Of a DNA stretch of 24,000 nucleotides, positions 1-22,740 are shown in pieces. The notes under the pieces were generated by a model. That model saw only the letters and a list, made by a program, of their open reading frames with translations. It had not been told where the DNA came from and did no database searches. Numbering within the stretch: the first letter of the stretch is position 1; each line of letters begins with the position of its first letter. The stretch lies in contig JARIHM010000085.1 of assembly GCA_029288275.1 (NCBI GenBank), positions 15,379 through 39,378 on the forward strand, given 5' to 3'. The position numbers and the translations under genes are program-made. Source of the DNA: Candidatus Saccharimonadota bacterium. Lineage in GTDB: Bacteria; Patescibacteriota; Saccharimonadia; UBA4664.

Positions 1-1
1 G

Positions 2-544
2 CAGGGTCGTCTCTGATGCCGCGGGTTCGGCCTCGCCCGTCTCGGCCATCGGATCGTAGGCGGCCAGCGCCTGGTCGATCACGGTCTCCTCGATCTCGTG
101 GTAGGGAGGCAATGTCTCGCCCCACCGCGCGATCGGGAAGATGTGCCAGTCCTCGAGGTCGTCCTCGCTGTGGCCGATTACGCCGACACACAGCAGGTCG
201 GTCTCGTCCTCGGCCGGGACCCAGATCTGCAAGAAGTCGAATAGCTCGGTCTGCTCGGCCCAGGCGATGGCCTCGCGGGCCTCGTCCGGCACGCCGGTGG
301 ACAGGTATTCAGTCAGCTCGTCGCAGTCTTCGCAGCCACACTTGGCGTAGGGCAGGAAGCCGTCCCACACCTGCGTTTGGCGGGGCGTGAACTGACGGAA
401 CAGCTGGTTGGCGTGGTTGACGCGCCACTCCGGCAGCCACCCGGCCGCCTCGGCCAGAGCTCTGCTCTCGGTCACCTCGGAGAGATCGGCCTCGGCCGCA
501 TTCGAGATGCCAGCTTCGGGTTGACGGTACAGCTCGACTGCCAT
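2..544 (-). CDS. hypothetical acidic protein, partial (C-terminus lies beyond the window start)
   Basis: Hand translation from the ATG at 544-542 to the window edge gives 181 codons with no stop. It is missing from the supplied track because it has no stop codon. GAGGAG lies 5 nt upstream. Codons are overwhelmingly G/C-ending. The product begins MAVELYRQPEAGISNAAEADL and is very rich in D/E. The Arg-rich + strand ORF 16..390 is its antisense shadow. Confidence 0.6.
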   Translation of the reverse strand, partial: MAVELYRQPEAGISNAAEADLSEVTESRALAEAAGWLPEWRVNHANQLFRQFTPRQTQVWDGFLPYAKCGCEDCDELTEYLSTGVPDEAREAIAWAEQTELFDFLQIWVPAEDETDLLCVGVIGHSEDDLEDWHIFPIARWGETLPPYHEIEETVIDQALAAYDPMAETGEAEPAASETTL

Positions 545-581
545 GGTCACTCCTCATCACTTGTTGAAGTGCTAAGGAGAT

Positions 582-609
582 ATTATAGAATACTTCTATT
601 TTTAGTCAA
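582..609 (-). promoter_or_regulatory. sigma70-like promoter for the 544<- gene
   Basis: On the minus strand: TTGACT (609-604), 16-nt spacer, TATAAT (587-582). It sits in a short AT-rich gap and overlaps the TGA stop of the NUDIX gene. Confidence 0.5.
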
Positions 610-1070
610 GAGCAGAATAACTCGGGATGAACCCTCCGGAGCGCTGCTAGGTCGTCTTGTGTGACCAGGCTCAGGCGTAGCCCCAGGCTCTCCAGCTCAC
701 TCGGCCAGAACCAATTGATGGCCGAGCACTTGTCCGGCTCCAAGATCGTTGGTTCACCTTCAATAATTCGACCCAGGAAGGTGGGTGAGAGCCAATGCTG
801 TCCCTCATCGGGAATGATGTGGTCGCAAACATAAAAGGGCTGATCGTCTACCTCAATGGTAATGCCGTATTCTTCCTTCATCTCGCGCTTGATTGCCTGA
901 GCCAGGCGTTCGCCTCGCTCTACTCTGCCACCTGGGAACTCCCAGGTACCAGCTTCATTGCTGGCCTTGGGGCCGCGCTTGGCCAGAAACACCCGGCCAA
1001 GAGTATCGAGCAGTACAACGCCGACGCCTACACCGATATAATCCACTCCTGCTTTCATGGTGCTCCTCAT
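606..1070 (-). CDS. NUDIX hydrolase
   Basis: Nudix box GGRVERGERLAQAIKREMKEEYGI fits GX5EX7REUXEEXGU. The real start may be the ATG at 1058 (MKAGVDY...), which follows GAGGAG. Confidence 0.85.
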   Translation of the reverse strand: MRSTMKAGVDYIGVGVGVVLLDTLGRVFLAKRGPKASNEAGTWEFPGGRVERGERLAQAIKREMKEEYGITIEVDDQPFYVCDHIIPDEGQHWLSPTFLGRIIEGEPTILEPDKCSAINWFWPSELESLGLRLSLVTQDDLAALRRVHPELFCS

Positions 1071-1206
1071 GCTTGCGCTGATTTGGGCTTGCTCGCTATA
1101 GCAGAAAGCCCAGATCCAAGCGACGAAGCTCTCGGATCTGGGCGAAAACTAGCAAAGTTCCCGGGGCGACAGGAAGCTTTCGGTGACGCTACGAGCTCCT
1201 TACTCA

Positions 1207-1389
1207 TCAGCAGCGCTCGCTTAGGGCGCTTTCTGGAACGTTCTTGAGTACCTTCCAGGACCCATCCTTTGACCTGTAGGAAATAGTGTAAGTGTGTTTC
1301 CTATCGTTGTAACCTTTGACGAGGGCGTCGCGCATACCATCCGTCGCAGTGGTATTGACCCAGAGATCCTTGCCGACATGCCAGACCAT
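1207..1389 (-). CDS. small hypothetical protein (60 aa)
   Basis: Internal ATG of the 1207..1470 ORF, preceded by GAGAGGA. An extended -10-like TGTTACACT lies further upstream. A 9-bp-stem hairpin (1109-1142) lies downstream. Product: MVWHVGKDLWVNTTATDGMRDALVKGYNDRK... Confidence 0.4.
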   Translation of the reverse strand: MVWHVGKDLWVNTTATDGMRDALVKGYNDRKHTYTISYRSKDGSWKVLKNVPESALSERC

Positions 1390-1481
1390 GACAATCCTCT
1401 CAGCGGCCCGACGAGCCTGTCTCGCCGGGCCGGGCTTAGTGTAACATAGGTCGTACGAGGAACTAAGCAAAAGGATTTATT

Positions 1482-2783
1482 GTGCTACGAACCATTGTGA
1501 AAGCCCTGATTCCGCGCGGATTATTCCGGGCCATTGAGCCCTATGGCCATCTAGCGGAGGCGGTAATGTGGCAGGTGCTGATGGGCTTTCCGGCGCGCGG
1601 CCTCAAGGTAATTGGCGTGACCGGTACCGATGGCAAGACCACCACTAGCACGCTCATTTATACGATGCTCAATGATGCAGGCCTTAAAACCGGCCTCATG
1701 ACCACCATTGGCTATGGTACGCCTGGCCACTGGCATGATAATCAGGTGCACATGACTACCATGCCGACACGGGCTATGTTGCAACGGATTAGGGCTCTGC
1801 GCCGGCAGGGGATCGAGTGGCTGGTGTTGGAGACGACCAGTCATGCACTGGCCCAGTATCGGGTATGGGGCATTCCTTATAGCCTGGCCGTGATGACCAA
1901 CTTGACGGAGGAGCACCTGGATTACCACGGGACGTTTGAGCGTTACCGCGAGGCCAAGGTGCGCTTGTTCAAGTTGGTGGCGGCCAATACGCGCGGCTTA
2001 CAGACCGGCATTGTGAATGCTGACGATCCGAATGCTTCATACTTTGTGGCGGCCGCGCCGCGCGTATTGCGTTACGGCACGACTATTCAGGCCGATCTGA
2101 AACCAGCTCACGTGGTGAGCACCGCCACCGGTAGTACCTATGACGTAACCTATGATGGCCACACTCTTCACATGACCGTAAATGTGCCAGGAGACTTTAA
2201 TGTGATGAACTCACTGGCTGCCGTGGGCGTGGGCTTGACACTAGGCCTCAAGCCGGCAGCGATTGAGCAAGGAGTAGCGGCGCTCAAAACGGTGGCTGGC
2301 CGCATGAATACCATCGAAGAGGGGCAGAACTTTACGGCCATTGTGGACTTTGCTCACACCCCAGAGTCATTTGAGAAGATATTGAGTAGCATGCGCCGGC
2401 TGGCTAAGGGGCGGCTAATCGTGTTATTTGGCTCGGCTGGGGAGCGCTACGCCGGCAAGCGTGGCACACAGGGGGCCTCGGCCGGTCGCTGGGCCGATCT
2501 GGTAATTGTGACCGAGGAGGACGACCGTGGCGAAGACGGCCGGGCTATCATGAAGCAGATTGCCCAAGGTGCGGAGGCTGAAGGCAAGATTATGGACGAG
2601 AATCTATTTTTGATTGGAGATCGTACCCAAGCTATCACCTTCGCCGTGAAGCAGGCCCGGCCCGGCGATACAGTGCTGTTTCTAGGCAAGGGCCATGAAA
2701 AGACCATTGAACGCGCCGATGGCGTTCATCACTGGGACGAGACGGAGGTGGTGCGCAAGGCGCTGCGTGAGTTACGCTCGTAG
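1482..2783 (+). CDS. murE: Mur ligase, MurE-type (UDP-MurNAc-L-Ala-D-Glu:diamino acid ligase)
   Basis: P-loop GVTGTDGKTTT. MurE-like motifs TSHALAQYRV, TNLTEEHLDYHG, DFNVMNSLAA and VDFAHTPESFEKIL. GTG start 6 nt after AAGGA. The N-terminal domain is shorter than in E. coli MurE. Confidence 0.78.
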   Translation: MLRTIVKALIPRGLFRAIEPYGHLAEAVMWQVLMGFPARGLKVIGVTGTDGKTTTSTLIYTMLNDAGLKTGLMTTIGYGTPGHWHDNQVHMTTMPTRAMLQRIRALRRQGIEWLVLETTSHALAQYRVWGIPYSLAVMTNLTEEHLDYHGTFERYREAKVRLFKLVAANTRGLQTGIVNADDPNASYFVAAAPRVLRYGTTIQADLKPAHVVSTATGSTYDVTYDGHTLHMTVNVPGDFNVMNSLAAVGVGLTLGLKPAAIEQGVAALKTVAGRMNTIEEGQNFTAIVDFAHTPESFEKILSSMRRLAKGRLIVLFGSAGERYAGKRGTQGASAGRWADLVIVTEEDDRGEDGRAIMKQIAQGAEAEGKIMDENLFLIGDRTQAITFAVKQARPGDTVLFLGKGHEKTIERADGVHHWDETEVVRKALRELRS

Positions 2784-3725
2784 CTTATTCTGGGCCAGAT
2801 AGTTGGCGTACCAGCTGTAGTCGCCGCCCAGGAATTTAGCCACCAGCTCGGTCCCAAGCTCGGCGGTTTGGCGCTGCACATCCTGGAGAGGATTGTATTC
2901 CACCACATCGCAGCCCACCACATGCGCATGCGTACCGATGTAGTGGGCGATGGCGGCGATCTCGCGATAGGTGAGGCCCCCGGGATTGGGCATGCCAGCA
3001 CCGGGTGCGTATACCCGGTCGATTACATCCAGATCCAGGCTCACCCACACGTGATCGACCTGTGCAGCCAGCTTATCAATCATGGCAAAGAGCGGCGCGA
3101 GGTTGCTGGTGAGTAGATCATGCAGTGTAAATGCCGGTAATTTTTCGCGGACGATTAGCTCCAGCTCGGCTTGGTCAAAGTCATTCCCGCCAATATGCAG
3201 GAGGTGCTGGCGGGCAATCTTGGTACCGGGCCGGTGGAGCTGAGTCATGGCTGGATCCCCAAAACCTAGCAGCGCTGCCAGATGCATGCCATGAATATTG
3301 CCGGTGAGGGTAGTGTCCGGAGTGTTCATATCGCCGTGGGCATCAAAGTAAATGAGGCCGAGGTTACCCTCCACGGCTGCCGCCGCGCCAGACACCAGCC
3401 CCAGCGTCACCGAATGATCTCCACCCAGACCGACTACTCGGCGCCCTTGCCGCACTAGCCGCTCAGTAAGGCGGGCAGTCTCACTGGACACTCGCACAAT
3501 CTCATCCAGGTGCCGTAGCTTAGGATCGCCCACGGCTACCTTGGCGCGATCAGCACAGGCGATATTACCCTCATCGGTCATATCAAAACCAGCGCTCGCC
3601 AGCTTGCTCATTATGCCCTGATACCGAAATGCATCTGGCCCCACGTCCACACCCAGGTTCTCGGCGCCCAGATCAAGCGGAATACCGATTAATGACACGG
3701 CCTTGGAAGGGGATTGCATCTTCAT
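2772..3725 (-). CDS. rocF: arginase (ureohydrolase family)
   Basis: Mn-binding motifs GGDHSVTLG, DAHGDMNTP and SLDLDVIDRVYAPGAGMPNPGG. TGNIHGMHLA and the overall layout resemble Bacillus RocF. Its 3' end overlaps murE convergently by 12 nt. Confidence 0.82.
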   Translation of the reverse strand: MKMQSPSKAVSLIGIPLDLGAENLGVDVGPDAFRYQGIMSKLASAGFDMTDEGNIACADRAKVAVGDPKLRHLDEIVRVSSETARLTERLVRQGRRVVGLGGDHSVTLGLVSGAAAAVEGNLGLIYFDAHGDMNTPDTTLTGNIHGMHLAALLGFGDPAMTQLHRPGTKIARQHLLHIGGNDFDQAELELIVREKLPAFTLHDLLTSNLAPLFAMIDKLAAQVDHVWVSLDLDVIDRVYAPGAGMPNPGGLTYREIAAIAHYIGTHAHVVGCDVVEYNPLQDVQRQTAELGTELVAKFLGGDYSWYANYLAQNKLRA

Positions 3726-3825: not shown

Positions 3826-3999
3826 ATGTGCGAGAGAGAAGAGAAGGCTCACAAGGACCGTCGTAGAGAGGTCACAAGAGCCATCAGACGTGGTTCCCGT
3901 GCTGAGATGACGGCTGCTGAACGACGCTACGCCGTCAGGCACCGTCGTAACGTGGTCCATGGCAGAGACATGGACCGGGGCAGCAGCAACCTCTGCTAA
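3826..3999 (+). CDS. small basic ORF (57 aa), coding status uncertain
   Basis: ATG preceded by GAGAGGCGG about 11 nt upstream. Product MCEREEKAHKDRRREVTRAIRRG... A possible promoter TGGACT-16-TAATAT lies at about 3752-3779. Confidence 0.25.
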   Translation: MCEREEKAHKDRRREVTRAIRRGSRAEMTAAERRYAVRHRRNVVHGRDMDRGSSNLC

Positions 4000-4067
4000 C
4001 GGCCATCACGAGGATATCCTCGAGACTTTTGGCGGAACGGCCGCCAAATGAGAAGAAGGAGTACTTC

Positions 4068-4199
4068 ATGCTGCGCTGTGACCCGAATCCGAATCCTGAT
4101 ACCCGCCAGGAGCGGCTGGACGCTGCCGCCGAGCAGATGGGCAAGCGGTTCGGCGAAAAGGGCCGGTACCGCGGTCGACGCCCGGGCGACAAGAGCTAG
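4068..4199 (+). CDS. small ORF (43 aa), coding status uncertain
   Basis: Best SD in this unit: GAAGGAG, 7-nt spacer, ATG. Product MLRCDPNPNPDTRQERLDAAAEQMGKRFGEKGRYRGRRPGDKS. Too short for the supplied track. Confidence 0.35.
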   Translation: MLRCDPNPNPDTRQERLDAAAEQMGKRFGEKGRYRGRRPGDKS

Positions 4200-4204
4200 A
4201 GCTA

Positions 4205-4339
4205 ATGTGCGAGAGCAGACCGGAGCCGAATAACGGCTTCAACCCAGCCGGCACCAAGGTGCGCGCTACTACTACGCGTGATCGCAACATCGCTCAGGCG
4301 ACAAGGCATCTGCCGAAGCGCAAGCAGATCGAGAAGTAG
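4205..4339 (+). CDS. small ORF (44 aa), coding status uncertain
   Basis: ATG 5 nt after the preceding stop; weak SD. Product MCESRPEPNNGFNPAGTKVRATTTRDRNIAQATRHLPKRKQIEK. It shares the first 12 nt (aATGTGCGAGAG) with the ORF at 3826. Confidence 0.2.
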   Translation: MCESRPEPNNGFNPAGTKVRATTTRDRNIAQATRHLPKRKQIEK

Positions 4340-4361
4340 CTCTCTTGCGTTGATGTAGTAA

Positions 4362-4399
4362 GGCCCGTTCCTCCGATTGGAGGAACGGGCCGTTTTTTT
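4362..4399 (+). terminator. rho-independent terminator
   Basis: Perfect 13-bp stem ggcccgttcctcc / ggaggaacgggcc with loop gatt, followed by a run of 7 T. Confidence 0.85.
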
Positions 4400-4843: not shown

Positions 4844-6193
4844 ATGAACTTTCCAACCTCACTCTTCAAGGCTTATGACATTCGCGGGCTCGTTGGTACT
4901 GAATTAACGCCAGCATTGGCCGAGGGAGTGGGTCGAGCACTGGCCGACTTTCTGCCTGATGAGGGTCCGATATGCGTGGGTTACGATATGCGGCCAGACT
5001 CGCGCGAGCTGGCGGCCGCCATCCGTACCGGCTTGATGCATCAGGGGCGCGAAGTGTATGACATTGGCGAGGTGGCTAGCGATATGATTTACTTTGCCGT
5101 CGGCCACCTGCAGGCTGCTGGCGGGGCCATGGTAACGGCCAGCCACAATCCCGGCGCCTACAACGGCATTAAGCTGTGCGGCCGTGAGGCCCGGCCGATC
5201 GGCATCGAGACTGGGTTGGCCGACCTGCGTGATGCCGTGGCGGCCGATCGCTACAAGGCTGCTGACGCGCCTGGTCGCCATGAACGTCGTAGCATTATGG
5301 AGGCTTGGGTTAAGCATGCGCTCAGTTTTGTGGATGCGGGCGGCCTCAAGCCCTACCACATTGCTGTGGATGCTGGGAATGGTATGGGCGGCCTCGTTAT
5401 GCCGCACCTGGCCGGCAAGTGGCCGCTCACCGTCGAACCGATGTACTTTGAGCTTGATGGTACCTTCCCAAACCATCCGGCCAATCCACTGGTGGCGGAG
5501 AACGATCGCGACCTGATCGCCAAGATTAAGGCGGAGCGGCTGGACTTTGGCCTGGCCTTTGACGGCGATGGCGACCGGGCGGTCATGGTGGACGAGCTGG
5601 GCCGCATCGTTCCGGGCCACATTATGACGGCTATGCTGGCCAAGCATTTCTTAAAGCGTAATCCCGGTGCCAATATCATCTATGATGCCCGCAACAGCCA
5701 CCTGGTACGCGACGTAGTAGAAGAGAACGGCGGGCATGCTATCCGGAGCCGGGTGGGCCATTCGTTTATCAAGGCCGATATGCGCCGGTATGATGCGCCT
5801 TTTGGCGGGGAATTCTCGGGCCATTATTACTTCCGCGATAACTTCTACGCTGATTCGGGCCTCATTGGCGCCCTAGTGGGTATTCAGGTATTGAGTGATA
5901 GTGGCCAAAAGCTTTCTGAACTGGTTGATGAGTATGCAGCTCGGTATGCCCGCTCGCCGGAAATTAACTTCTCGGTGACCGATAAGGATGCCAAAATAGC
6001 TGAGCTGGCCAAGCTGTATGCTGATGGCGCTATTGATCATCTGGACGGACTGACGGTGACCTACCCGGATTGGTGGTTCAACGTCCGGCCGTCCAACACT
6101 GAGCCGTTGTTGCGTCTGAATGTAGAGGCTACCACATCGCAGGTGCTAGCGGAGCAGGAGGCCAAGCTTAAGGCCGTGCTGGGAACTGCATAA
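4844..6193 (+). CDS. phosphomannomutase/phosphoglucomutase (alpha-D-phosphohexomutase)
   Basis: N-terminal FKAYDIRG, phosphoserine loop TASHNPGAYNGIKL, Mg loop FDGDGDR and sugar loop GGEFSGH. Confidence 0.9.
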   Translation: MNFPTSLFKAYDIRGLVGTELTPALAEGVGRALADFLPDEGPICVGYDMRPDSRELAAAIRTGLMHQGREVYDIGEVASDMIYFAVGHLQAAGGAMVTASHNPGAYNGIKLCGREARPIGIETGLADLRDAVAADRYKAADAPGRHERRSIMEAWVKHALSFVDAGGLKPYHIAVDAGNGMGGLVMPHLAGKWPLTVEPMYFELDGTFPNHPANPLVAENDRDLIAKIKAERLDFGLAFDGDGDRAVMVDELGRIVPGHIMTAMLAKHFLKRNPGANIIYDARNSHLVRDVVEENGGHAIRSRVGHSFIKADMRRYDAPFGGEFSGHYYFRDNFYADSGLIGALVGIQVLSDSGQKLSELVDEYAARYARSPEINFSVTDKDAKIAELAKLYADGAIDHLDGLTVTYPDWWFNVRPSNTEPLLRLNVEATTSQVLAEQEAKLKAVLGTA

Positions 6194-6917: not shown

Positions 6918-7181
6918 ATGCAGTTACACCCATTAGCTGATCGCATTGTGGCCCGCCAAATGGAGGCCGAGAGCAAAACCGCTGCCGGCATTTTGTTGCC
7001 GGATAGCGCCAAGGAGAAGCCGCTCATGGCCGAGGTCGTGGCGGTTGGCAAGGACGTCAAAGAGGTGAAGGTTGGCGACCGCGTGCTCTATAAGCAGTTT
7101 AAGGCCGACGAGATTAAGGCGGGTACCGAAGAGTTCCTGCTTTTGAAAGAAGAAGACGTAATGGCAGTAGTAAAGGAATAA
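6918..7181 (+). CDS. groES: co-chaperonin GroES
   Basis: An 87-aa Hsp10 sequence (LHPLADRIVAR...TAAGILLPDSAKEKP...VVAVG) with SD AGAGGAG, directly upstream of groEL. Confidence 0.95.
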   Translation: MQLHPLADRIVARQMEAESKTAAGILLPDSAKEKPLMAEVVAVGKDVKEVKVGDRVLYKQFKADEIKAGTEEFLLLKEEDVMAVVKE

Positions 7182-7187
7182 TTGCGC

Positions 7188-8855
7188 ATGGCAAAGAAGA
7201 TTTTTTACGATGACGATGCCCGCGCCCGCGTACTGGCTGGCGCCGAGGAGCTGTATAAAGCCGTTCGTGTAACCATGGGTCCCAAGGGCCGTAATGTGGT
7301 TATTAGCAAGAGCTACGGCGGCCCAAGCGTAACGCACGACGGCGTGACCGTGGCCAAAGCGGTGGAAATTGAGAATCGCAATGACGAGACGCTGGGCCGC
7401 AGCGTGGGTGCTGAACTCATTAAGCAGGCTGCCAGCAAGACAGCCGACAACGTAGGTGATGGTACCACTACCAGCACCGTGCTGACTTACCACATTTTGA
7501 ATGAGGCTAACAAGCTGATCGCGGCCGGCCACAATCCGATGGACCTGAAGAAGGGCCTGGACCAGGCCGCCGAGGCAGTGCTCGGTAACGTGGCGGGCAT
7601 GACCGAGCAGATTGCTGGCAACAAGGCTAAGACCGCCGAGGTAGCTACTGTGTCGGCTGGTGATGCCGAGATTGGTGCGCTGATTGCCGACGTGATCGAG
7701 GCCGTAGGTAATGACGGTACGGTGACGGTCGAGCAATCGCAGACGCTAGGCCTGGAGAAGGAGATCGTAGAAGGTTTCAAGATCGACCGGGGTTACGTCA
7801 GCGCCTATATGGCAACCGACATGGCGCGTATGGAGGCAGTCTACGAAAAGCCGCTCATTTTGGTGACCGATAAGAAGATCTCCAGCATCCAGGAGATCCT
7901 GCCGTTGCTCGAAAAGATGGCCCAGACCGGTAAGAAAGAGCTGGTGATTGTGGCCGAGGATGTGGATGGCGAGGCGCTAGCTACGCTCATTCTGAACCGG
8001 CTTAAGGGCGTGTTTAACACGCTGGCTATCAAGGCGCCGGCCTTTGGTGACCGTCGTAAGGCTGTGTTGGAAGACATTGCTACCCTTACCGGCGCAGTAG
8101 TGATTAGCGAGGAGCAGGGCTATACCTTCGAGAACGCCACGCTCGATATGCTCGGTTCGGCGCGCAAGGTGATCGCTACCAAGGACGATACCACCATCAT
8201 TGAAGGTACGGGCGATGCCAAAGCCGTGACTGCACGCATGGAGCAGATCCGTGGCCAAGTAGAGCACGCTTCGAGTGAGTACGACAAAGAGAATCTAGAG
8301 AAGCGCCTCAGCGCCCTGGCTGGCAAAGTGGCGGTCATTAAGGTAGGCGGCGCCACCGAGGTCCAGATTAACGAGACCAAAGATCGCGTCGATGACGCCG
8401 TGGCAGCCACCAAAGCAGCCGTGGCCGAAGGCATCGTGCCTGGCGGCGGTGTAACGCTGGTGGACCTGAGCAAGAAGCTTGAAGTTGAAGCTACCAAGGT
8501 GAGCTCCAGCGTGGAAGCCGGCCATCTGATTCTGAAGCAGGCGCTGATACAGCCGTTCCGCGAGCTCATGCGTAACGCCGGCCTTAACCCAGACGCGCAG
8601 CTGCCGCAGGTGATGAATCAGAACAAGCCGGGTATGGGCTTTGACGTCAACGACGGCAGCAAGCTGGTAGACCTGAAAGCAGCCGGAATTGTTGATCCCG
8701 CCAAGGTAACCCGTGAGGCCATCCAGAACGCCGTCAGTATTGCCGGTACGGCCATGACCATGGGTAGCCTGATCGTGGATCTGCCCGAGGAGAAGGGTGC
8801 TCCGGCTGGTGGTGGTATGCCCGGTGGTATGGGCATGGGCGGCATGGACTACTAG
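7188..8855 (+). CDS. groEL: chaperonin GroEL
   Basis: MAKKIFYDDDAR..., VGDGTTTSTVL, and a GGM-repeat C-terminus GGMPGGMGMGGMDY. The ATG at 7188 is preferred over the TTG at 7182 used in the track. Confidence 0.97.
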   Translation: MAKKIFYDDDARARVLAGAEELYKAVRVTMGPKGRNVVISKSYGGPSVTHDGVTVAKAVEIENRNDETLGRSVGAELIKQAASKTADNVGDGTTTSTVLTYHILNEANKLIAAGHNPMDLKKGLDQAAEAVLGNVAGMTEQIAGNKAKTAEVATVSAGDAEIGALIADVIEAVGNDGTVTVEQSQTLGLEKEIVEGFKIDRGYVSAYMATDMARMEAVYEKPLILVTDKKISSIQEILPLLEKMAQTGKKELVIVAEDVDGEALATLILNRLKGVFNTLAIKAPAFGDRRKAVLEDIATLTGAVVISEEQGYTFENATLDMLGSARKVIATKDDTTIIEGTGDAKAVTARMEQIRGQVEHASSEYDKENLEKRLSALAGKVAVIKVGGATEVQINETKDRVDDAVAATKAAVAEGIVPGGGVTLVDLSKKLEVEATKVSSSVEAGHLILKQALIQPFRELMRNAGLNPDAQLPQVMNQNKPGMGFDVNDGSKLVDLKAAGIVDPAKVTREAIQNAVSIAGTAMTMGSLIVDLPEEKGAPAGGGMPGGMGMGGMDY

Positions 8856-10125: not shown

Positions 10126-10150
10126 CAATTTAATATAGTTATGCTATTAT
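10122..10150 (+). promoter_or_regulatory. near-consensus sigma70-like promoter
   Basis: TTGACA (10122-10127), 17-nt spacer, TATTAT (10145-10150), in an AT-rich gap. The -35 box contains the TGA stop of the upstream gene. Confidence 0.65.
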
Positions 10151-10243
10151 GATTAACACTCAGACCAAGCACATGGCTTAGGTCTCGAGATGCACCGATC
10201 AGATTCTGGCTCTGGCCCAACGCACGCCTGAGGAGGCTGCATC

Positions 10244-12213: not shown

Positions 12214-12217
12214 CTCA

Positions 12218-13308: not shown

Positions 13309-13318
13309 GCAAAAAAGA

Positions 13319-13372
13319 ACCGTCAGGGACGGAATCTCAGCTAAAATGCCGAGATTCCGCCGCACTGACGGT
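13319..13372 (-). terminator. extended hairpin terminator for the minus-strand SPFH operon
   Basis: Outer stem accgtcag / ctgacggt and inner stem cggaatctc / gagattccg. On the minus strand it is followed by TTCTTTTTT. Confidence 0.75.
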
Positions 13373-13390
13373 ATCTGATCAGGTGATCGG

Positions 13391-13717
13391 TTAGGAGGTG
13401 ATGGTGCCGCCGCCGTTCAGGTGGAAGGCTCGCTCTTCGGCTACTTGCTTAGCCGTAAGCAGGCGATTCTCCCAGTCTGGGTCGTTATCCGGAAAACAAT
13501 CAACTTTGTGCTCCTCGAGCACTTCGTTGCTCCCGGGTGCCACCAGACTCACGGTGACCAAGGTCTGGCCATTGCGCGAGCTGTGACGGAATTGCCAGCT
13601 GGCCTTCCGCCGTTGCTGCTCGCGCTCTCGCCGCGGCCACTTCACCAGGGTGTAGTAGAAGCCCCAGATGACCAGGGCGCCGAAGCCACCGGCCCCAAGG
13701 ACGACCAGATCTTTCAC
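13391..13717 (-). CDS. small membrane protein (108 aa), translationally coupled to the SPFH gene
   Basis: The GTG start overlaps the upstream TAG by 1 nt (TAGTG). N-terminal TM helix VVLGAGGFGALVIWGFYYTLV followed by a basic stretch. High G+C. Confidence 0.65.
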   Translation of the reverse strand: MKDLVVLGAGGFGALVIWGFYYTLVKWPRREREQQRRKASWQFRHSSRNGQTLVTVSLVAPGSNEVLEEHKVDCFPDNDPDWENRLLTAKQVAEERAFHLNGGGTITS

Positions 13718-14694
13718 TACTTGGCCCCGGTCAACGGCACCGCAGTGTTGGCGCCAGGCGCGTACACCGTGACACCCTTCGGCAGGGCGGCGATGATGTC
13801 GATCTGCCCGCAGACCGGACAGGCGTTGTAGCCTTCCTGCTTCGTCTCATTGGCCTTGGCTTCAGCCTGAGCCTGCGCCACCTTGGCCTGGCTCTCGCTG
13901 ACCTTGGCATAGGCAGCCTGGGCGTCCTCCACGGCCTTCTGGACCGAGTCGGGCAAGCTGACCTTGCTCAGATTGAAGTGGATGTTGGAGAGGAACTCCC
14001 CGCCCAACGTACCCTTCAGATCCTGAGCGAACGAGGTGTTGACCGCGTCCTGGACCTTGGCGATGTTGCCGTTGTTGGCCTGGCCGTTGGTGCCGGCCTG
14101 GGGCTGAGTACTCTGACCTTGGTTCTGCACCAAGGCGCAGCTCGACACCAACTCCGCACAGCGGAAGTTGTTGACCTGCTCACGCAGATCGTTGTCGATG
14201 ACGGGGCGAATGATCTGGTCGAGGAAGCTCGACCAGCCCTCGTCGCCGTCCCAGGCGTAGCGCAGCTGGCCATCGGCACCGCGGAACTGCCGGGTGCCGA
14301 ACTTGTCGTCGAAAGTGTGCAGGGTGTTCTCGTCGGTGTTGAGGGTGAAGTAGAAAGTCCCCTCGATCCCCATTGACACACCGTCGCTCGATGGCACGGT
14401 GACAACGTCGATCCCGGTCTTGTCACCTTCGTTGGCCTTGGCCGTGATGGTGTAGAAGCGCTGCTGTGCCGGGTAGCGGTGAATGCTGGACCAGAAGCCA
14501 GTCCAGGTTACGCCGCTACCGGCCGGAATCTTCTGGCGGTAGCTGTTGTCATCGAACCACCCACCGTTTCGAACCACCGCAACCTCGCCGGCGCTCGTCT
14601 TGGTGAGGCTGTCGAACGCTCCGTAGAGAGTCGGCAGGCCGAAGATGACCAGCACAACCAGTACCAAGAGGGCCCAGGGCCGTCGATTTCGCAT
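13717..14694 (-). CDS. SPFH/band-7 (stomatin/prohibitin-like) membrane protein
   Basis: N-terminal TM WALLVLVVLVIFGLP. SPFH-like core (GEVAVVRNGG..., VVTVPSSDGVSMGIEGTFYFTL, IIRPVIDNDLREQV). Ala/Gln/Glu-rich coiled C-terminus AQAAYAKVSESQAKVAQAQAEAKA. ATG at 14694 follows GGAAGGA. Confidence 0.7.
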   Translation of the reverse strand: MRNRRPWALLVLVVLVIFGLPTLYGAFDSLTKTSAGEVAVVRNGGWFDDNSYRQKIPAGSGVTWTGFWSSIHRYPAQQRFYTITAKANEGDKTGIDVVTVPSSDGVSMGIEGTFYFTLNTDENTLHTFDDKFGTRQFRGADGQLRYAWDGDEGWSSFLDQIIRPVIDNDLREQVNNFRCAELVSSCALVQNQGQSTQPQAGTNGQANNGNIAKVQDAVNTSFAQDLKGTLGGEFLSNIHFNLSKVSLPDSVQKAVEDAQAAYAKVSESQAKVAQAQAEAKANETKQEGYNACPVCGQIDIIAALPKGVTVYAPGANTAVPLTGAK

Positions 14695-14738
14695 GAGTAT
14701 TCCTTCCAAGAGGAGGTGCTGCGGTAAAGCCGTTTTGT

Positions 14739-14766
14739 ACTATACTGATTTTTTCCACTATGTCAA
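14739..14766 (-). promoter_or_regulatory. sigma70-like promoter of the SPFH operon
   Basis: Minus strand: TTGACA (14766-14761), 16-nt spacer, TATAGT (14744-14739), in an AT-rich gap. Confidence 0.6.
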
Positions 14767-14794
14767 TAAATTTATACCGTTCTTAGCCCAGATA

Positions 14795-14803
14795 TGCTAA
14801 AAT
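14795..14803 (+). promoter_or_regulatory. extended -10 element upstream of tRNA-Ser
   Basis: TGCTAAAAT ends 10 nt before the tRNA 5' end. Confidence 0.45.
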
Positions 14804-14813
14804 AGCCCGGTCC

Positions 14814-14901
14814 GGAGGGGTCGCCTAGTGGCCTATGGCGCTCGCTTGGAAAGCGAGTTGGGTGCAAGCCCTCGAGGGTTCGAATCCCTCTCCCTCCGCC
14901 A
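14814..14901 (+). tRNA. tRNA-Ser (anticodon GGA), CCA encoded
   Basis: Manual fold: acceptor GGAGGGG/TCCCTCC, anticodon stem CTCGC/GCGAG, loop TTGGAAA (anticodon GGA), a long variable arm (class II), T-arm GAGGG-TTCGAAT-CCCTC, discriminator G, then CCA. Confidence 0.9.
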
Positions 14902-14915: not shown

Positions 14916-15383
14916 ATGGCTATGATATCAACTGGGATTGCACAAGCATCTGATCTAAGGGCAATCTATGAACTTGGCCAGACAGTGGCTGAGTTTGAGG
15001 TAAACGATCAGACCGTGGGATTCTGGCCTCAGGCCGTGGTAGCCGATGCCATTACAAGCACTGATGTACTCGTAATTGTGGCCCGGAATGATCGGGAAGA
15101 ATTAATTGGGTTCATCATTGCAAATTTGAATAAAACGCTACGCAAAGTTCTTATTGAGAACTTGGTTGTGGCTCCGCATGCCCGGGGGCGTAAAGTAGGT
15201 GGGGTAATGCTGGCTCATCTAGTGGCAATTGTTTCGGGCTCGGGGTATGAGTACCTGGCGGCTCTTGTGCCGCTGCAGGCCGAGAGTGCACTGCGAGCCT
15301 ATGGTGAGGCGGGGTTCTCCCGTGGACACAGCTTTGTGTGGCTTGATCGTACACTATCGCGGCATTTTCGGCGGTCAGGATAG
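14916..15383 (+). CDS. GNAT family N-acetyltransferase
   Basis: Acetyl-CoA motif A LVVAPHARGRKVGGVML. The start was trimmed from the track ORF (14835), which overlaps the tRNA. GTG 14913 and ATG 14922 are alternative starts. Confidence 0.75.
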   Translation: MAMISTGIAQASDLRAIYELGQTVAEFEVNDQTVGFWPQAVVADAITSTDVLVIVARNDREELIGFIIANLNKTLRKVLIENLVVAPHARGRKVGGVMLAHLVAIVSGSGYEYLAALVPLQAESALRAYGEAGFSRGHSFVWLDRTLSRHFRRSG

Positions 15384-15942: not shown

Positions 15943-17100
15943 ATGCCTAAAACAATTACCACAGCTCAAGATATCGCTACACTGGGAACGATCCTGGGCG
16001 TGTGGGCGCATCCGGACGATGAATCGTTCGTGGCGGCCGGTATCCTGGCTACCGCTGCTCGCAACGGCCAGACGGTAGTGTGCGCCACTGCGACGGAAGG
16101 CGAGGCGGGCATTCAAGATATCACCAAATGGCCAGCCGAGACTCTTGGCGCCACCCGGGTGGCCGAACTGCGGGCGGCACTGGCGGTTTTGGGCGTAGAG
16201 CAACACGTGTGGCTGGGGTACCCAGACGGGGGCTGTGCTGAAATTAGTCAAGCCAAGGCCGTTGCGGGTATCCGTTCCCTGTTGCGGCGGTTCCAGCCTG
16301 ATACGGTTATCACCTTTGGTCCTGACGGTCTTACGGGCCACCCGGATCACTGTGCGGTATCACGTTGGGCCACGTTGGCGGCTGGCTCGGTACGGCCGCG
16401 GCCGCGCTTGTTTTACGCCGTTCACACCCCCGAGCAGCACGAGCACTTTAAACCGGCCGATGCGCGCCTCAATATCTTTTTCAACATTGATCAGCCACCG
16501 CTGCGGGCGGCCGAAAACTGCGTCATCGCCTATGAACTGCCGCGCGACATTATGGCACTCAAGCATCAAGCGTTTAAGGTAATGCCCTCGCAAACGCAGA
16601 AATTGTTGCGTGTGCTAACTCCACGGGCCTTTTATCGCGCCTTTGGGGCCGAATATTTTGTAGAATATAATCCTCAGGAGGACGAGCCCATGACTGATAG
16701 CGATACTATGAAGCACCAACCCGAATCCTACTGGAAAGGCAAGCTGACACCCGAGCAATATCATATTATGCGCGAAAAAGGCACGGAGGTGCCGTGGACG
16801 GGTATTTACGTGGACAACCACGCGTCGGGTATGTATCGGTGCGCGGCTTGCGGCCAGGAGCTATTCTCGAGTGAGACAAAATTCGACAGCGGTTCTGGCT
16901 GGCCGAGCTTTTATGATGTAGCGGCCACCGGGCGAGTAGAACTGCACGAGGATAGTTCGGCCGGCCTGCAGCGCACCGAAGTAACTTGTGCGAACTGTGG
17001 CGCGCACTTGGGCCATGTATTCCCTGACGGCCCGGCTGATAAGACCGGTCAGCGCTATTGTATTAACTCGGCGGCGCTCGATTTTAAGGCTGCCAAGTGA
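15943..17100 (+). CDS. msrB: fusion ORF: LmbE/PIG-L family deacetylase (N-terminal) and methionine-R-sulfoxide reductase MsrB (C-terminal)
   Basis: N-terminal [10 protein letters not shown] and GHPDH motifs (LmbE/PIG-L). C-terminal MsrB motifs [28 protein letters not shown] and RYCINS. A single frame with no stop. An internal AGGAGGA-7 nt-ATG lies at 16690. Confidence 0.8.
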
Positions 17101-19074: not shown

Positions 19075-19470
19075 ATGGCCGGATATTCTGAACGACCGTT
19101 AATTGAAAAACTAGGCGTGCGGGCTGAAGCCCGGACGATCATTTTGCGTGCGCCCAAAGGCTACCTTGAGCTTATGCCCGAGCTGCCTGAGCGCGCTCAG
19201 ATGGTGACACGGCTGGCTGGTCTATTCGATTTTATGCAATACTTTGCTACCAGCACCGAGCAGCTGGAGGCCGTGTTGCCAAATTTGGTGCGGCATCTAC
19301 AATCGGACGGCATGCTGTGGATTAGCTGGGCCAAGCGCACCTCGCCACTGCATACAGGGCTGGCCGAACCAGCGGTACGGCGACTGGGCCTAGCGACTGG
19401 TCTGGTAGACGTTAAAGTGGCCGCCCTGACCGATGATTGGTCGGGGCTCAAATTCGTGTATCGATCCTAG
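19075..19470 (+). CDS. DUF3052-like protein
   Basis: MAGYSERPLIEKLGV..., WISWAKR and VDVKVAALTDDWSGLKFVYR match my recollection of the DUF3052 family, which is common in Actinobacteria. Confidence 0.65.
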   Translation: MAGYSERPLIEKLGVRAEARTIILRAPKGYLELMPELPERAQMVTRLAGLFDFMQYFATSTEQLEAVLPNLVRHLQSDGMLWISWAKRTSPLHTGLAEPAVRRLGLATGLVDVKVAALTDDWSGLKFVYRS

Positions 19471-19496
19471 ACTTTATTTTTTATATATTGTATAGT
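19468..19496 (+). promoter_or_regulatory. sigma70-like promoter of the J-domain cassette
   Basis: TAGACT (19468-19473, containing the upstream stop codon), 17-nt spacer, TATAGT (19491-19496), in a very AT-rich gap. Confidence 0.5.
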
Positions 19497-19550
19497 ATTT
19501 TTCGACTACGATTGTGTGGTCGCTCATTCCAACCCAGAGAAGGGATTCTC

Positions 19551-20069
19551 ATGAGCGCAACGACTCACTTGCCGGCGGTTGTGACCGAAGCAGGCGGGGC
19601 ACTGGTAAGCGTTCTCAGCTGGACTCAGTACACCGAATTGTCGCCCCAGGTGACCTATGCCCTGGGCCGGCTGGTGGGCGAGCACCCTGACCTCAACACC
19701 GAGCAGCGTGTGGATCTGCTGGCCGATATGGCCCACCACCACGGGTCTTCGTTCGATGCGGAGTTCCTGGAGCTGCTCGAAGAGTACACGCCGGAGCTGG
19801 TTCACCTGGCCATCGACACTCTGTACGAATGCGCTTACCGTGATCGTCAGGGTGGCAAGATGGCCGACCTGGAGGGTCTGGCCAAGTTCATTCAGGCTGC
19901 TGGTGAGTACGGCCGCGAGCTGACGACCGTTCATGGCGTCAGCGTGTTGCTGGAACGCCTGGGTGGTCTGGAAGTGGTGGTTGAGTACTCACTCACCGAG
20001 ATCGAGCAAGCGCTCGATGGTTTGGACGAAGCCGACAGCAGGGGAGGGTATGTTGAGGAGCTCATTTGA
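19551..20069 (+). CDS. orphan acidic protein (172 aa), first gene of the J-domain cassette
   Basis: GAGAAGGGA, 5-nt spacer, ATG. G/C-rich codons. Product MSATTHLPAVVTEAGGALVSVLSWTQYTEL...; D/E-rich C-terminus. Confidence 0.7.
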   Translation: MSATTHLPAVVTEAGGALVSVLSWTQYTELSPQVTYALGRLVGEHPDLNTEQRVDLLADMAHHHGSSFDAEFLELLEEYTPELVHLAIDTLYECAYRDRQGGKMADLEGLAKFIQAAGEYGRELTTVHGVSVLLERLGGLEVVVEYSLTEIEQALDGLDEADSRGGYVEELI

Positions 20070-20970
20070 GATCCTAGGAGTACCTCGAGGACTGGTGCGC
20101 CGGGCCCTTGAGGCCGATGCGCTGGACACGCTTGCATCGGTTATCAAGCGTTATCACCGTGTCCTCTTGCACGAATACCATCCCGACCAGCCTACGGGTG
20201 ATGCTCAACTGCTGGATGAGGTGGTCAAAGTCTACAAGCAGCTCCAGGACCCAATCGCGCTAAAGTTTGAGGCTGAGCTCTACGTGAAGGATGGCCTGGC
20301 GCCCAAGACCGCTGCGGCCAGCTCGAAGCGTCAAGCTCAGCGCGATGACCGTGTTCGCGAAGCCCTGGAGACAATGCTTCTGGTTGTGGACCAGCAGTGC
20401 ATCCTGGGCGCTTCCGGGCCGGTGCGGTTCTTTGTCGGACTGGACGTCTCGGGCTCGGACTTTAGCGGGAGCTACGAGGAAGGCCTGGCCGGAGAGCTGA
20501 GCGCCCATGCGCTCACTCTGGCGCGGACTCTGCCCATAGCCGACCCGACTGGGCTTGACGGGGCTGATAAGCTGGTCTTCGATGGCCGTCCTGAGTTCGA
20601 TATCCAGGAGAACCTCTGGCGCGACGTTGCTTTCGTTAACCCAGAGGTTAATTCCGAGAGCCGCAGCTGGCTTCACCGCCAGACGGTGCCGCTTCCTAGC
20701 GATATCAGGCTGGCTGGGGCAGTGGCCAAGGGGCTGGCGGCGGATCTGTGGGTATCGCTGTACGGAGCGCGTGGTTCCGGTCCGTCGGCTAGAGGCGCGC
20801 TCCCTGGCGGCCGGCTCCAAGGCTTAGCCTGGGCGCCGTTTGGCCAGTGTTGGTGGGCGCCGTTGTTGCAACCGCGGGCTGCCCTGGGCGATCATCTGGT
20901 CCTCGTGAGGGATGGCGAATCCCCGCTCTACACATTGACGGGCCGGCTCTTAGCCTGCGAGCCAATGTAG
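20050..20970 (+). CDS. J-domain protein with an unrecognised roughly 230-aa C-terminal region
   Basis: SFEILGVPRGL...IKRYHRVLLHEYHPDQPTGDAQLLDEVVKVYKQLQDP has the HPD tripeptide at 20179-20187. It overlaps the upstream gene by 20 nt. An alternative start is ATG 20017. Confidence 0.72.
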   Translation: MLRSSFEILGVPRGLVRRALEADALDTLASVIKRYHRVLLHEYHPDQPTGDAQLLDEVVKVYKQLQDPIALKFEAELYVKDGLAPKTAAASSKRQAQRDDRVREALETMLLVVDQQCILGASGPVRFFVGLDVSGSDFSGSYEEGLAGELSAHALTLARTLPIADPTGLDGADKLVFDGRPEFDIQENLWRDVAFVNPEVNSESRSWLHRQTVPLPSDIRLAGAVAKGLAADLWVSLYGARGSGPSARGALPGGRLQGLAWAPFGQCWWAPLLQPRAALGDHLVLVRDGESPLYTLTGRLLACEPM

Positions 20971-20976
20971 CACGTG

Positions 20977-21012
20977 GCCCCCTGTCGTAATGCGACAGGG
21001 GGCTTTCCTTTT
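20977..21012 (+). terminator. rho-independent terminator
   Basis: 11-bp stem gccccctgtcg / cgacagggggc with loop taatg, followed by tttcctttt. Confidence 0.85.
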
Positions 21013-22082: not shown

Positions 22083-22244
22083 GTGGCTCGCAAGAAAAAA
22101 GGAAAAAAGACGGGCTTTAAGTGTAGTAGCTGCACGCACGACGTTTATGCGTGCGGCGTAAGCGGCAATAATCATACCGACTGTAGTAACTGTAATGGCA
22201 AGCTGGTTGTCTGCGCCAACCGAAAGTGTAGTACTAACAGGTGA
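22083..22244 (+). CDS. small Cys-rich basic protein (53 aa), coding status uncertain
   Basis: GAGAGG about 6 nt upstream of a GTG, 30 nt after the PHP stop. Product MARKKKGKKTGFKCSSCTHDVYACGVSGNNHTDCSNCNGKLVVCANRKCSTNR (7 Cys). Confidence 0.4.
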   Translation: MARKKKGKKTGFKCSSCTHDVYACGVSGNNHTDCSNCNGKLVVCANRKCSTNR

Positions 22245-22253
22245 TTTCTACCG

Positions 22254-22282
22254 TTGCGCACGATCGTTTCGCCTGATATAAC
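22254..22282 (+). promoter_or_regulatory. sigma70-like promoter with an extended -10
   Basis: TTGCGC (22254-22259), 17-nt spacer ending in TGA, TATAAC (22277-22282). Confidence 0.5.
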
Positions 22283-22327
22283 ATCCTAGCAAGGGGAGAC
22301 CCTAGTCCTTCTTGAGAGGAAAGAAAG

Positions 22328-22471
22328 ATGAGTGAGGCGGATCGACGCCAGCTTCTTCCAGCGGACCTTGGGCGGGTCTTGACTCAGCCGGCCCGTCGAC
22401 GGGTTCCGCGCTCACGAGCCGCTGGCCGGCCGGAACACAAGCTTACTCCTCACAATGAGGTCAAGCGCTGA
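22328..22471 (+). CDS. small basic ORF (47 aa), coding status uncertain
   Basis: GAGAGGAAAG upstream of the ATG. Product MSEADRRQLLPADLGRVLTQPARRRVPRSRAAGRPEHKLTPHNEVKR. Confidence 0.35.
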   Translation: MSEADRRQLLPADLGRVLTQPARRRVPRSRAAGRPEHKLTPHNEVKR

Positions 22472-22476
22472 ATGGG

Positions 22477-22692
22477 GTGAACCAGATGGCTGGTAACCAC
22501 AGCCGGGCATGGCACGACGCTAACACGGCGGTCGACGAAGCGCAGCGGGCGTATGATGACGCCAAGCGGTTCTATGGCGACGATTCGAACAACGCCTGGA
22601 GGATCAACGATGCGGCCACGGCGCTGACGGCCGCCAGGAACAATTTCAACACAATCAACCGTGATCCCAATCAGGCCTGGGATCAGTCGTGA
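22477..22692 (+). CDS. small Asn/Asp/Ala-rich protein (71 aa from GTG, 68 aa from ATG 22486)
   Basis: Starts 5-14 nt after the previous stop. G/C-rich codons. Followed by a terminator. Product ...MAGNHSRAWHDANTAVDEAQRAYDDAKRFYGDDSNNAWRINDAATALTAARNNFNTINRDPNQAWDQS. Confidence 0.5.
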   Translation: MNQMAGNHSRAWHDANTAVDEAQRAYDDAKRFYGDDSNNAWRINDAATALTAARNNFNTINRDPNQAWDQS

Positions 22693-22696
22693 AATT

Positions 22697-22740
22697 GGCC
22701 CGAACTCTCCTAGAGGGTTCGGGCCTCCTTTCGCCTTTTG
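22697..22740 (+). terminator. rho-independent terminator
   Basis: 9-bp stem ggcccgaac / gttcgggcc, followed by the T-rich tract tcctttcgccttttg. Confidence 0.75.

Follow-up and report, generated by a model that had tools for sequence, protein, structure and literature searches.

Saccharibacteria are epibionts of Actinobacteria, and the passage of genes between the two groups has precedents. Saccharibacteria-host transfer is known from the acquisition of an arginine deiminase system (PMC8764695), and natural competence has been shown for cultured Saccharibacteria (PMC10633639). In metagenome-assembled genomes (MAGs) of the candidate phyla radiation (CPR) from activated sludge, the pieces involved in horizontal gene transfer (HGT) measure 0.5-6 kb and carry mostly hypothetical genes (PMC10031880); reconciliation of CPR gene trees found evidence lacking for transfer between experimentally profiled Saccharibacteria-host pairs (PMC8406219). 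The subject here is a 24,000-nucleotide stretch of a Saccharimonadia genome ("the window": GCA_029288275.1, contig JARIHM010000085.1) in which small gene units, one of them an operon of an SPFH/Band-7 gene and the gene of a 108-amino acid (aa) membrane protein, lie one by one between housekeeping genes.

How does this locus compare with what has been described? As in other cases of HGT into the CPR, a reduced-genome epibiont carries genes closest to those of another phylum that includes known hosts, and the pieces are short. It differs in that each piece, a single open reading frame (ORF) or an operon of two genes, occupies a separate intergenic slot within a syntenic core region; that the donor signal is a G+C content at third codon positions (GC3) of 0.83-0.97; and that the ORFs stand behind the best consensus promoters of the region. 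With genomic islets and flexible-genome hotspots the locus shares conserved flanking core genes, lineage-specific content and a tRNA gene bordering one hotspot, but it is without integrase, att-like repeats and mobility genes, its units hold one or two genes, and the variable region lies 5' of tRNA-Ser. Integron cassettes are similar in that promoterless foreign ORFs would use a resident promoter and cargo would be replaced serially, and different in their intI, attI/attC and array; here the slots are dispersed among core genes, every one with a promoter of its own. The actinobacterial SPFH operon is matched in gene pair, order and lengths, with 75-79% identity for SPFH and 48% for its partner; the differences are the Saccharimonadia genome, an AT-rich consensus promoter and a GC3 of 0.84 in place of ~0.96.

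What the window holds is a new and unusually clean example of host-to-CPR transfer and not a new kind of system; its less expected parts are the link between best promoters and slot genes and a conserved leader element. Foreign ORFs were probably captured by slots of the core genome in which promoters are strong and turnover is high, rather than imported as self-contained cassettes. The units fall into three classes: 1) alien ORFs that stem from a donor of high GC, namely the SPFH + 108-aa operon (actinobacterial, as its sequence relationships indicate) and a 232-aa and a 225-aa gene (so placed by their codons); 2) vertical, fast-evolving genes, namely a 105/197-aa pair behind the conserved leader; and 3) lineage-specific genes of near-native composition, namely a 172/306-aa pair, a 68-aa ORF, small ORFs at 3826-4199, and arginase-family, GNAT and 207-aa genes.

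The organism is a Saccharibacterium (Saccharimonadia, Patescibacteria/CPR) represented by a soil MAG: the top homologues of its PGI belong to Candidatus Saccharimonadia MAGs (75% and 73% identity), with Saccharibacteria filling the long remainder of the list, so that the guess of an epibiont of this type, ventured in a preliminary description of the window made from its letters, was correct. At 57.7% the mean GC of the window is unusually high for Saccharibacteria. Its proteins recur residue for residue on contig JARIHK010000019.1 (45.7 kb) of GCA_029288295.1.

Three compositionally alien units

The features that matter most are the following (L011 is the contig used as compositional background and L004 an actinobacterial locus, both described below; promoter scores are matches to the sigma-70 consensus):

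2-553, minus strand: 3' 184 codons of a 225-aa orphan gene (whole gene, L011:10515-11192)
582-609, minus strand: promoter of the 225-aa gene, TTGACT-16-TATAAT (11/12), its -35 box over the NUDIX stop codon (606-608)
10122-10150, plus strand: promoter TTGACA-17-TATTAT with extended TG (11/12), its -35 box containing the TGA stop (10123-10125) of a 267-aa gene
10244-10942, plus strand: 232-aa orphan gene, GC3 0.97, actinobacterial-type codons, strong Shine-Dalgarno (SD) site GAGGAGG
10950-11005, plus strand: tandem hairpins after the 232-aa gene (GC-rich 14-bp stem, 10950-10978; 11-bp stem and T-run, 10979-11005)
13320-13359: hairpins between the convergent pgi and SPFH operon, kept in the relative L009
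13391-13717, minus strand: 108-aa membrane protein gene, conserved operon partner of SPFH in Actinomycetota, 48% identical to L004:11010-11336
13717-14694, minus strand: SPFH/Band-7 gene, 325 aa, probable xenologue from high-GC Actinomycetota
14739-14766, minus strand: promoter of the SPFH operon, TTGACA-16-TATAGT (11/12), in an AT-rich gap adjoining tRNA-Ser

Composition at the three codon positions (GC1, GC2, GC3) was set against 42 genes of one 45-kb contig (the window with 10 kb to its left, L011), whose median GC3 is 0.659 with a robust standard deviation of 0.068. By this measure the 232-aa gene, in a segment (10201-10950) of 70-71% GC, stands far out (GC3 0.97, z 4.6), followed by the SPFH gene (0.84, z 2.7) and the 225-aa gene (0.83, z 2.6, for the whole gene; 0.86 for the part within the window). 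The 108-aa gene has a GC3 of 0.75, and the remaining units (0.75/0.72 for the 105/197-aa genes, 0.72/0.70 for the 172/306-aa genes, 0.75 for the 68-aa ORF) overlap native genes such as those of PGI (0.71), GroEL (0.70) and a large tRNA synthetase (0.71). A log-likelihood test on synonymous codons, comparing an actinobacterial model (locus L004) with a leave-one-out backbone model, separates them further: backbone genes score -0.62 ± 0.15 with a maximum of -0.23, against +0.41 (z 7.1) for the 232-aa gene, +0.10 (z 4.9) for the 225-aa gene, +0.07 (z 4.7) for SPFH and -0.12 (z 3.5) for its 108-aa partner, while the 105-, 197-, 172- and 306-aa genes, at -0.25 to -0.39 (z 1.6-2.5), stay below the backbone maximum.

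Relative to the backbone, groESL is enriched in GGT (0.43), CGT (0.36), AGC (0.68) and ATT (0.59). In the outlier genes GTC takes 0.41-0.47 (0.15-0.18 in native genes) and ATC 0.75-0.95 (~0.4 in native genes), TCC is raised, and GTA, CGT and ATT are almost absent, the same pattern as in L004. Because the outliers run opposite to the groESL preferences and match L004, the codon bias of the three outlier units is of foreign, actinobacterial type and is not an amplified native groESL bias. Three units of the window are compositionally alien, the 232-aa gene, the 225-aa gene and the SPFH + 108-aa pair; six or seven are ruled out. Of the six segments previously described as sharply deviant, the description stands for 2-553, 10244-10942 and 13391-14694 and fails for the rest (GC3 0.70-0.75); its count of about six A/T-ending codons in 10244-10942 was accurate (6 of 232 sense codons, and the TGA stop).

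SPFH proteins are membrane scaffolds. The window's scores 75.3 bits for SPFH/Band 7 (PF01145) in Pfam, where the cutoff is 23.6 (E 8e-21); a PDB sequence search with it gave no match. It has 1022 homologues, of which the best 120 are 60-79% identical, and the named ones among those 120 are all Actinomycetota, at 60-71% (Actinoallomurus, Microbispora, Actinomadura, Micromonospora, Planotetraspora, Thermobispora and others). The nearest, at 75-79%, are metagenomic and lie on contigs of 67-69% GC that carry the same gene pair, SPFH and then a membrane protein of 108/109 aa; lengths (325-335 aa and 108 aa) and gene order are alike in Actinomycetota and the window. L004, at 103 kb the only long contig among the nearest, has a typically actinobacterial neighbourhood (DUF3107, DUF3152, a DEAD helicase, TetR regulators and an ECF sigma factor). 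PGI, for comparison, is 39-42% identical to actinomycetotal PGI among the matches listed. At conserved SPFH residues 34-39 codons end in A/T in the window gene, against 6-7 in actinobacterial orthologues (GC3 0.84 and ~0.96, respectively), an excess that is consistent with partial amelioration. The operon is missing from the slot between pgi and tRNA-Ser in the relatives L007, L008 and L009; in L009 the slot holds a 38%-identical homologue of the 108-aa partner. That the SPFH + 108-aa operon was transferred from Actinomycetota into the Saccharimonadia lineage is well supported: identity to the donor lies far above that of the backbone PGI, relatives lack the operon, and its composition is displaced toward the donor's.

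What are the two orphans? In the 232-aa protein a five-helix core is preceded by an N-terminal stretch rich in Pro and Thr and followed by a basic tail rich in Asn, Gly and Arg, and the protein is predicted to be basic and largely disordered; an unreliable AlphaFold2 model of this protein alone (confidence score pLDDT 44) places the five-helix core at residues 51-133, between disordered tails. The 225-aa product, with an acidic N-terminal domain and a hydrophobic anchor at its C-terminus, is predicted to be tail-anchored and acidic. The 232-aa gene looks like a very recent arrival.

Beyond the window the same contig carries a fourth alien unit, an 82-aa membrane protein gene at L011:16173-16421 (plus strand; GC3 0.90, z 3.6; codon-model z 6.7), with strong terminators on both sides (16063-16094, 16440-16468) and a TG-extended promoter. 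The relative L007 has high-GC3 orphans of its own in other slots, at L007:2023-2538 (minus strand, 0.91) and L007:4074-4550 (plus strand, 0.83), in surroundings of ~0.72.

Variable slots and their promoters

Loci of relatives were reached through their PGI proteins: L007/L008 (GCA_964451975.1, GCA_035479295.1) and L009 (GCA_041743505.1). Scanning with the 267-aa protein, which is specific to the clade, added L093 and L094, which are more distant. A scan of genome contigs with PGI alone turned up no close relative; one with a PGI alignment gave distant Saccharibacteria (<=56% identity among the matches listed), and these served as negative controls for cassette proteins. The backbone runs Mur ligase, glmM, groES, groEL, 267-aa gene, pgi, tRNA-Ser, PIG-L/msrB, HhH-GPD glycosylase, 131-aa gene, PHP, dnaG; its proteins are collinear across the closer relatives (L007/L008, L009) and 65-91% identical.

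The contents of the slots between these genes change from one relative to the next. Slot A, from the 267-aa gene to pgi, holds the 232-aa gene in the window, an unrelated 193-aa gene (GC3 0.58) in L007 and a 275-aa gene (GC3 0.70) in L009; it is empty in L094 (58 nt) and spans 227 nt without an ORF in L093. Slot B, from pgi to tRNA-Ser, holds SPFH + 108 aa in the window, Lsr2 in L007/L008 and five other genes in L009. In slot C, from the 131-aa gene to PHP, the window has the 172-aa and 306-aa genes, while the flanking genes overlap in L007/L008. The question put by the preliminary description, whether these slots are empty elsewhere, thus has its answer: they are empty or differently filled in L007, L008, L009, L093 and L094, and none of the window's slot proteins occurs among ~45 other Saccharibacteria loci around pgi.

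The Lsr2 gene of slot B (L007:11119-11493, minus strand; Pfam Lsr2 and Lsr2_DNA-bd) lies between pgi and tRNA-Ser in L007, and likewise in L008. Lsr2 is a nucleoid protein of actinobacteria and actinophages; against a phage library the Lsr2 of L007/L008 matched 472 records, all of actinobacteriophages, at 39% identity. A literature search found no paper linking Lsr2 with Saccharibacteria.

The window's only 11/12 matches to the sigma-70 consensus, at 609 (minus strand), 10122 (plus) and 14766 (minus), stand before the three alien units; the promoters at 11024 and 19468 are weak (<=9/12), so that the near-consensus promoter once ascribed to each cassette is real for the first three sites and not for the other two. 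A -35 box lies over the neighbour's stop codon at 609, 10122 and 19468, in agreement with the at least three cases reported before. The promoter at 10122 equals its L009 counterpart at 31 of 38 positions, spacer included, and homology stops right after the -10 box; the L009 gene behind it is unrelated to the 232-aa gene, and in L007 TTGACA lies over the same stop codon of the 267-aa gene before a third unrelated gene. All these promoter regions are AT-rich, against donor DNA of 67-69% GC. Because the match with L009 includes the spacer and extends to the -10 box, the 10122 promoter was not imported, and the promoters are native in type.

Is a strong promoter the mark of an alien gene? The single 11/12 promoter of L007 (2606-2578) precedes its highest-GC3 gene (171 aa, GC3 0.91, L007:2023-2538), and a 10/12 promoter at 4004-4032, over the glmM stop, precedes the GC3-0.83 gene at L007:4074-4550. 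L009 has three 11/12 promoters, all in slots A and B, before genes of ordinary GC3, and the association is for this reason one with slot genes in general and not with GC3: all seven 11/12 promoters of the window, L007 and L009 precede slot genes, none a backbone gene. At their other ends all units close in hairpins, as had been noted (4362-4391, 10950-10978, 10979-11005, 12188-12212, 13320-13359, 20976-21004 and 22697-22725 in the window; that of the 225-aa gene at L011:11198-11227), and these have no common sequence. The stronger SD sites claimed for the cassettes shrink to a weak trend (mean -7.4 to -8.1 kcal/mol, against -5.6 for the backbone, with overlapping ranges).

A scheme for the capture of foreign ORFs can be drawn as follows. 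Host DNA would be taken up through natural competence, and short pieces of it would recombine illegitimately into intergenic slots. An ORF would be retained when it came to lie behind a strong, AT-rich, native-type sigma-70 promoter and ahead of a terminator; promoter and terminator would be the recipient slot's, and the ORF alone the import. After entry, genes would drift toward the composition of the recipient, and SPFH would be partly ameliorated.

Alternative readings

A number of points weigh against capture. The donor of the SPFH operon is named from a match list and gene neighbourhoods, rather than from a formal phylogeny, and the GC3 background, 42 genes of one 45-kb contig, is narrower than a whole genome. 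Promoter homology is limited to the 10122 slot; in the tRNA-Ser slot only the hexamers match, and promoter strength and expression are values predicted from sequence. When the surroundings of the three alien units were searched for repeats, direct or inverted, only internal low-complexity repeats and terminator hairpins came up, and no recombination scars. We infer the foreign origin of the 232-aa and 225-aa genes from their codon signature alone. The 232-aa protein had no homologue in a search of 5.8 billion clusters or in exhaustive HMMER of 1.84 billion representatives, and no match in phage/plasmid records (tblastn), viral contigs, Pfam, NCBIfam, PHROGs or PADLOC; the 225-aa protein had none in Pfam, PHROGs, PADLOC, phage/plasmid records (tblastn) or viral or metagenome contigs, two large protein libraries lying outside its search. 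A donor-lineage homologue of either gene did not appear within the searches run. The slot A protein of L009, moreover, resembles the 232-aa orphan in architecture, with a Pro-rich N-terminus and a basic RGG-like tail, and extreme divergence of a native gene is still a conceivable origin of that orphan.

A bolder version of the capture reading is possible, if tentative: the clade would keep "expression sockets", each a conserved strong promoter (sometimes on the upstream stop codon) and a terminator, between which ORFs are swapped repeatedly, some of them from the actinobacterial host. If true, this would be integrase-free gene capture by which a minimal genome samples host genes at high expression, and the alien ORFs would mark the lineage of the host (Streptosporangiales/Micromonosporales-like).

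The reading offered by the preliminary description, that all six or seven units are self-contained modules repeatedly imported from a high-GC donor with effector or defence/anti-defence content, is unlikely. A promoter-like site and a hairpin do bound each unit, relatives are without most of the units, and the marginal ones lie on the high side of the codon test (z 1.6-2.5); but four units are within the compositional range of the backbone, and one of these is the following:

11024-11178, plus strand: TTGACA promoter at 11024, then a leader/small RNA-like element at 11083-11178, followed by the 105-aa gene with its SD and ATG
11209-12212, plus strand: 105-aa and 197-aa genes, evidently native and fast-evolving, with terminator hairpin 12188-12212

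A leader of ~150 nt, the promoter and the gene start are kept among L007, L093 and L094; L007 aligns with the final 50 nt of the leader and the ATG. The 197-aa protein shows 27-31% identity to the protein in the same position in L007 (214 aa), and its own C-terminal half is paralogous to the 105-aa protein (E 1e-7). Because promoter, leader and gene start are conserved in these three relatives, unit 11024-12213 is vertically inherited, fast-evolving and not foreign, and its earlier listing as a foreign cassette, which its GC3 of 0.72-0.75 (the native range) also contradicts, is withdrawn; there the reading of imported modules is largely refuted.

The non-coding element itself (11083-11178, plus strand; ~90 nt, TCGTGGAAAGAAAAGGGCAAGCC...GACTCTATTCCTAGCGTAATGCCAGG...) has counterparts at L093:2003-2093 and L094:8080-8170 with ~90% identity, though the PGI proteins of L093 and L094 are only 52-64% identical. 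At its end stand a long hairpin and a T-run, and the SD and start codon of the 105-aa gene follow directly. Rfam, run on the whole window, returned only the tRNA and left the element unmatched; candidate roles for it are those of leader, attenuator or small RNA.

Nor do the boundaries of the alien units speak for self-contained imports: their promoters are rich in A+T and of a native type, and that at 10122 is kept in relatives that bear other cargo. The contents match no defence or phage family. PADLOC gave 0 matches for 10 proteins, PHROGs only a generic SPFH 'lipoprotein' family, and Pfam and NCBIfam likewise yielded no effector, defence or anti-defence family, so that this part of the proposal is unsupported; so is the suggestion of host phages as donors, since phage tblastn and viral contig scans gave no phage link for the window's own genes. 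Of repeated acquisition from a high-GC donor there remain the SPFH operon and, by codons, two more units, but not the others.

Recognized vehicles for such imports are likewise missing. Integrase, recombinase domain, att site and target duplication were not found in the window, and the variable slot is on the 5' side of tRNA-Ser, not at the 3' end, all of which separates the locus from mobile islands; a tRNA-targeted island is ruled out by that position and by the lack of flanking repeats. Integrons are set apart by the absence of an IntI integrase from the window and of a shared sequence from the unit hairpins. (The sole flanking repeat is a 7-bp direct one, ATTGACA, at 10121-10127 and 11023-11029; both copies are -35 boxes, and between them lies a ~900-bp segment missing in L094. 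It may have arisen by chance or be left over from recombination or duplication at a promoter.)

Could the high-GC3 genes be native but very highly expressed, codon selection having raised their GC3 without any transfer? The window's three best promoters do precede its three highest-GC3 genes, L007's top GC3 gene is placed likewise, and the GC3 of groEL is slightly raised in the clade. Yet the GC3 of groESL is just 0.67-0.70 and its bias is toward GGT, CGT and ATT, which the outliers avoid; the ancestry of SPFH is clearly actinobacterial; and the equally strong promoters of L009 precede genes of ordinary GC3. Expression-driven codon bias is improbable on all these counts, and is rejected for a groESL codon pattern opposite to that of the outliers.

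Equally improbable is the proposal that slot genes are old natives evolving too fast for their homology to be seen, the 232-, 193- and 275-aa proteins being positional orthologues. A promoter is kept before all three genes, the proteins of the window and L009 are alike (disordered-helical-basic), and the adjoining 197/214-aa genes evolve equally fast (27-31% identity). Drift cannot explain, however, a GC3 of 0.97 beside 0.58/0.70 in the counterparts and 0.58-0.72 in flanking genes; the three proteins show no significant similarity to one another even at relaxed settings (best E 0.05, in a low-complexity region); and the slot is empty in L094 and L093.

Least probable is an artefact of assembly or binning, in which a saccharibacterial contig would have taken in high-GC reads of actinobacteria: the MAG does come from a community containing Actinomycetota, and Logan contigs stop at one junction (13370-13396), but each high-GC ORF fits exactly between native-type promoter/SD and terminator in a collinear contig, SPFH is just 75-79% identical to any actinobacterial sequence and partly ameliorated, and a chimeric contig is rejected in view of independent Logan contigs that are 100% identical over the junctions of the 225-aa gene and over SPFH, promoter and tRNA-Ser.

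(A technical note: the Logan contigs were independently assembled from run SRR22279394 and compared with the window. At 100% identity L012 equals 1-2499, with the 225-aa gene and both its junctions; L003 equals 11671-13396; and L096 equals 13370-14901, with the SPFH operon, its promoter and tRNA-Ser. L003 and L096 end with an overlap of only 27 nt, precisely at the pgi-side junction of the SPFH unit; the break may be due to strain heterogeneity or low coverage.)

Neighbouring genes and the meaning of the transfer

The lineage-specific units of near-native composition are these:

3826-4391, plus strand: small-ORF unit, 57-aa and 43-aa ORFs and strong terminator 4362-4391; lineage-specific, the ORFs too short for a composition call
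19468, plus strand: weak promoter TAGACT-17-TATAGT (9/12), over the TAG stop of the 131-aa gene
19551-20069, plus strand: 172-aa gene of unit 19468-21004
20050-20970, plus strand: 306-aa J-domain-like gene of the same unit
20976-21004, plus strand: terminator hairpin of the 172/306-aa unit
22486-22725, plus strand: 68-aa lineage-specific ORF and hairpin 22697-22725, with the dnaG promoter just downstream

L007/L008 lack any counterpart of the 172/306-aa pair. SPFH and J domains had been called the only recognizable families among the products; SPFH is well above its Pfam threshold, whereas the match of 20050-20970 to DnaJ (PF00226) stays below it (16.8 bits, cutoff 27.8, E 0.007), albeit with an HPD motif (...LLHEYHPDQP...). 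Downstream of the 68-aa ORF the dnaG promoter is conserved with L007, unlike the remaining intergenic region.

The backbone and its immediate neighbours, identified through Pfam unless otherwise stated, are:

606-1058, minus strand: NUDIX
1482-2783, plus strand: Mur ligase
2772-3725, minus strand: arginase-family gene
4844-6193, plus strand: glmM
6918-8855, plus strand: groES/groEL
9322-10125, plus strand: 267-aa clade-specific gene, conserved, with no Pfam family
12247-13308, plus strand: bacterial-type PGI gene (pgi)
14814-14901, plus strand: tRNA-Ser(GGA), sole tRNA of the window; conserved, it bounds on the right the variable slot that follows pgi in the window, L007 and L009
15943-17100, plus strand: PIG-L+SelR fusion
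19075-19470, plus strand: 131-aa gene, upstream neighbour of the 172/306-aa unit

GNAT, methyltransferase-like, HhH-GPD glycosylase, PHP and dnaG genes were also recognized by Pfam; the 131-aa gene, once labelled DUF3052, found no match there. A few of these genes deserve comment. The 267-aa protein has a His-rich tail at its C-terminus, and in L093 a second copy, 29-31% identical, lies directly upstream (L093:28-582). PIG-L deacetylase and SelR (MsrB) form one 385-aa ORF in the window; in L007/L008 they are unfused (253 aa and 135 aa), with ~350 nt between them. The arginase-family gene, convergent with the Mur ligase gene and overlapping its 3' end by 12 nt, is missing between Mur ligase and glmM of L007 and L094 and is native in composition (GC3 0.64). 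Directly 3' of tRNA-Ser, the GNAT acetyltransferase gene (14916-15383, plus strand) is a low-GC3 outlier (0.48, z -2.6) that is not present in L007, L008 or L009; it may have come from a donor of low GC, its place beside a tRNA gene being a classic one for acquisitions.

The hosts of environmental Saccharibacteria are, to our knowledge, nearly all unknown. A partly ameliorated transfer from Actinomycetota to Saccharimonadia provides a sequence-based clue to the identity of the host, and two unameliorated ORFs of actinobacterial type and the Lsr2 gene of sister genomes provide the same clue; jointly they show ongoing transfer. The actinobacterial genes point to the likely host group. Because slot genes and not housekeeping genes stand behind all the best consensus promoters of three related genomes, the sequences also suggest that the small slot proteins may be among the most strongly transcribed of these organisms. 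They are good candidates for factors of host interaction, in a group of bacteria that is now genetically tractable (PMC10633639).

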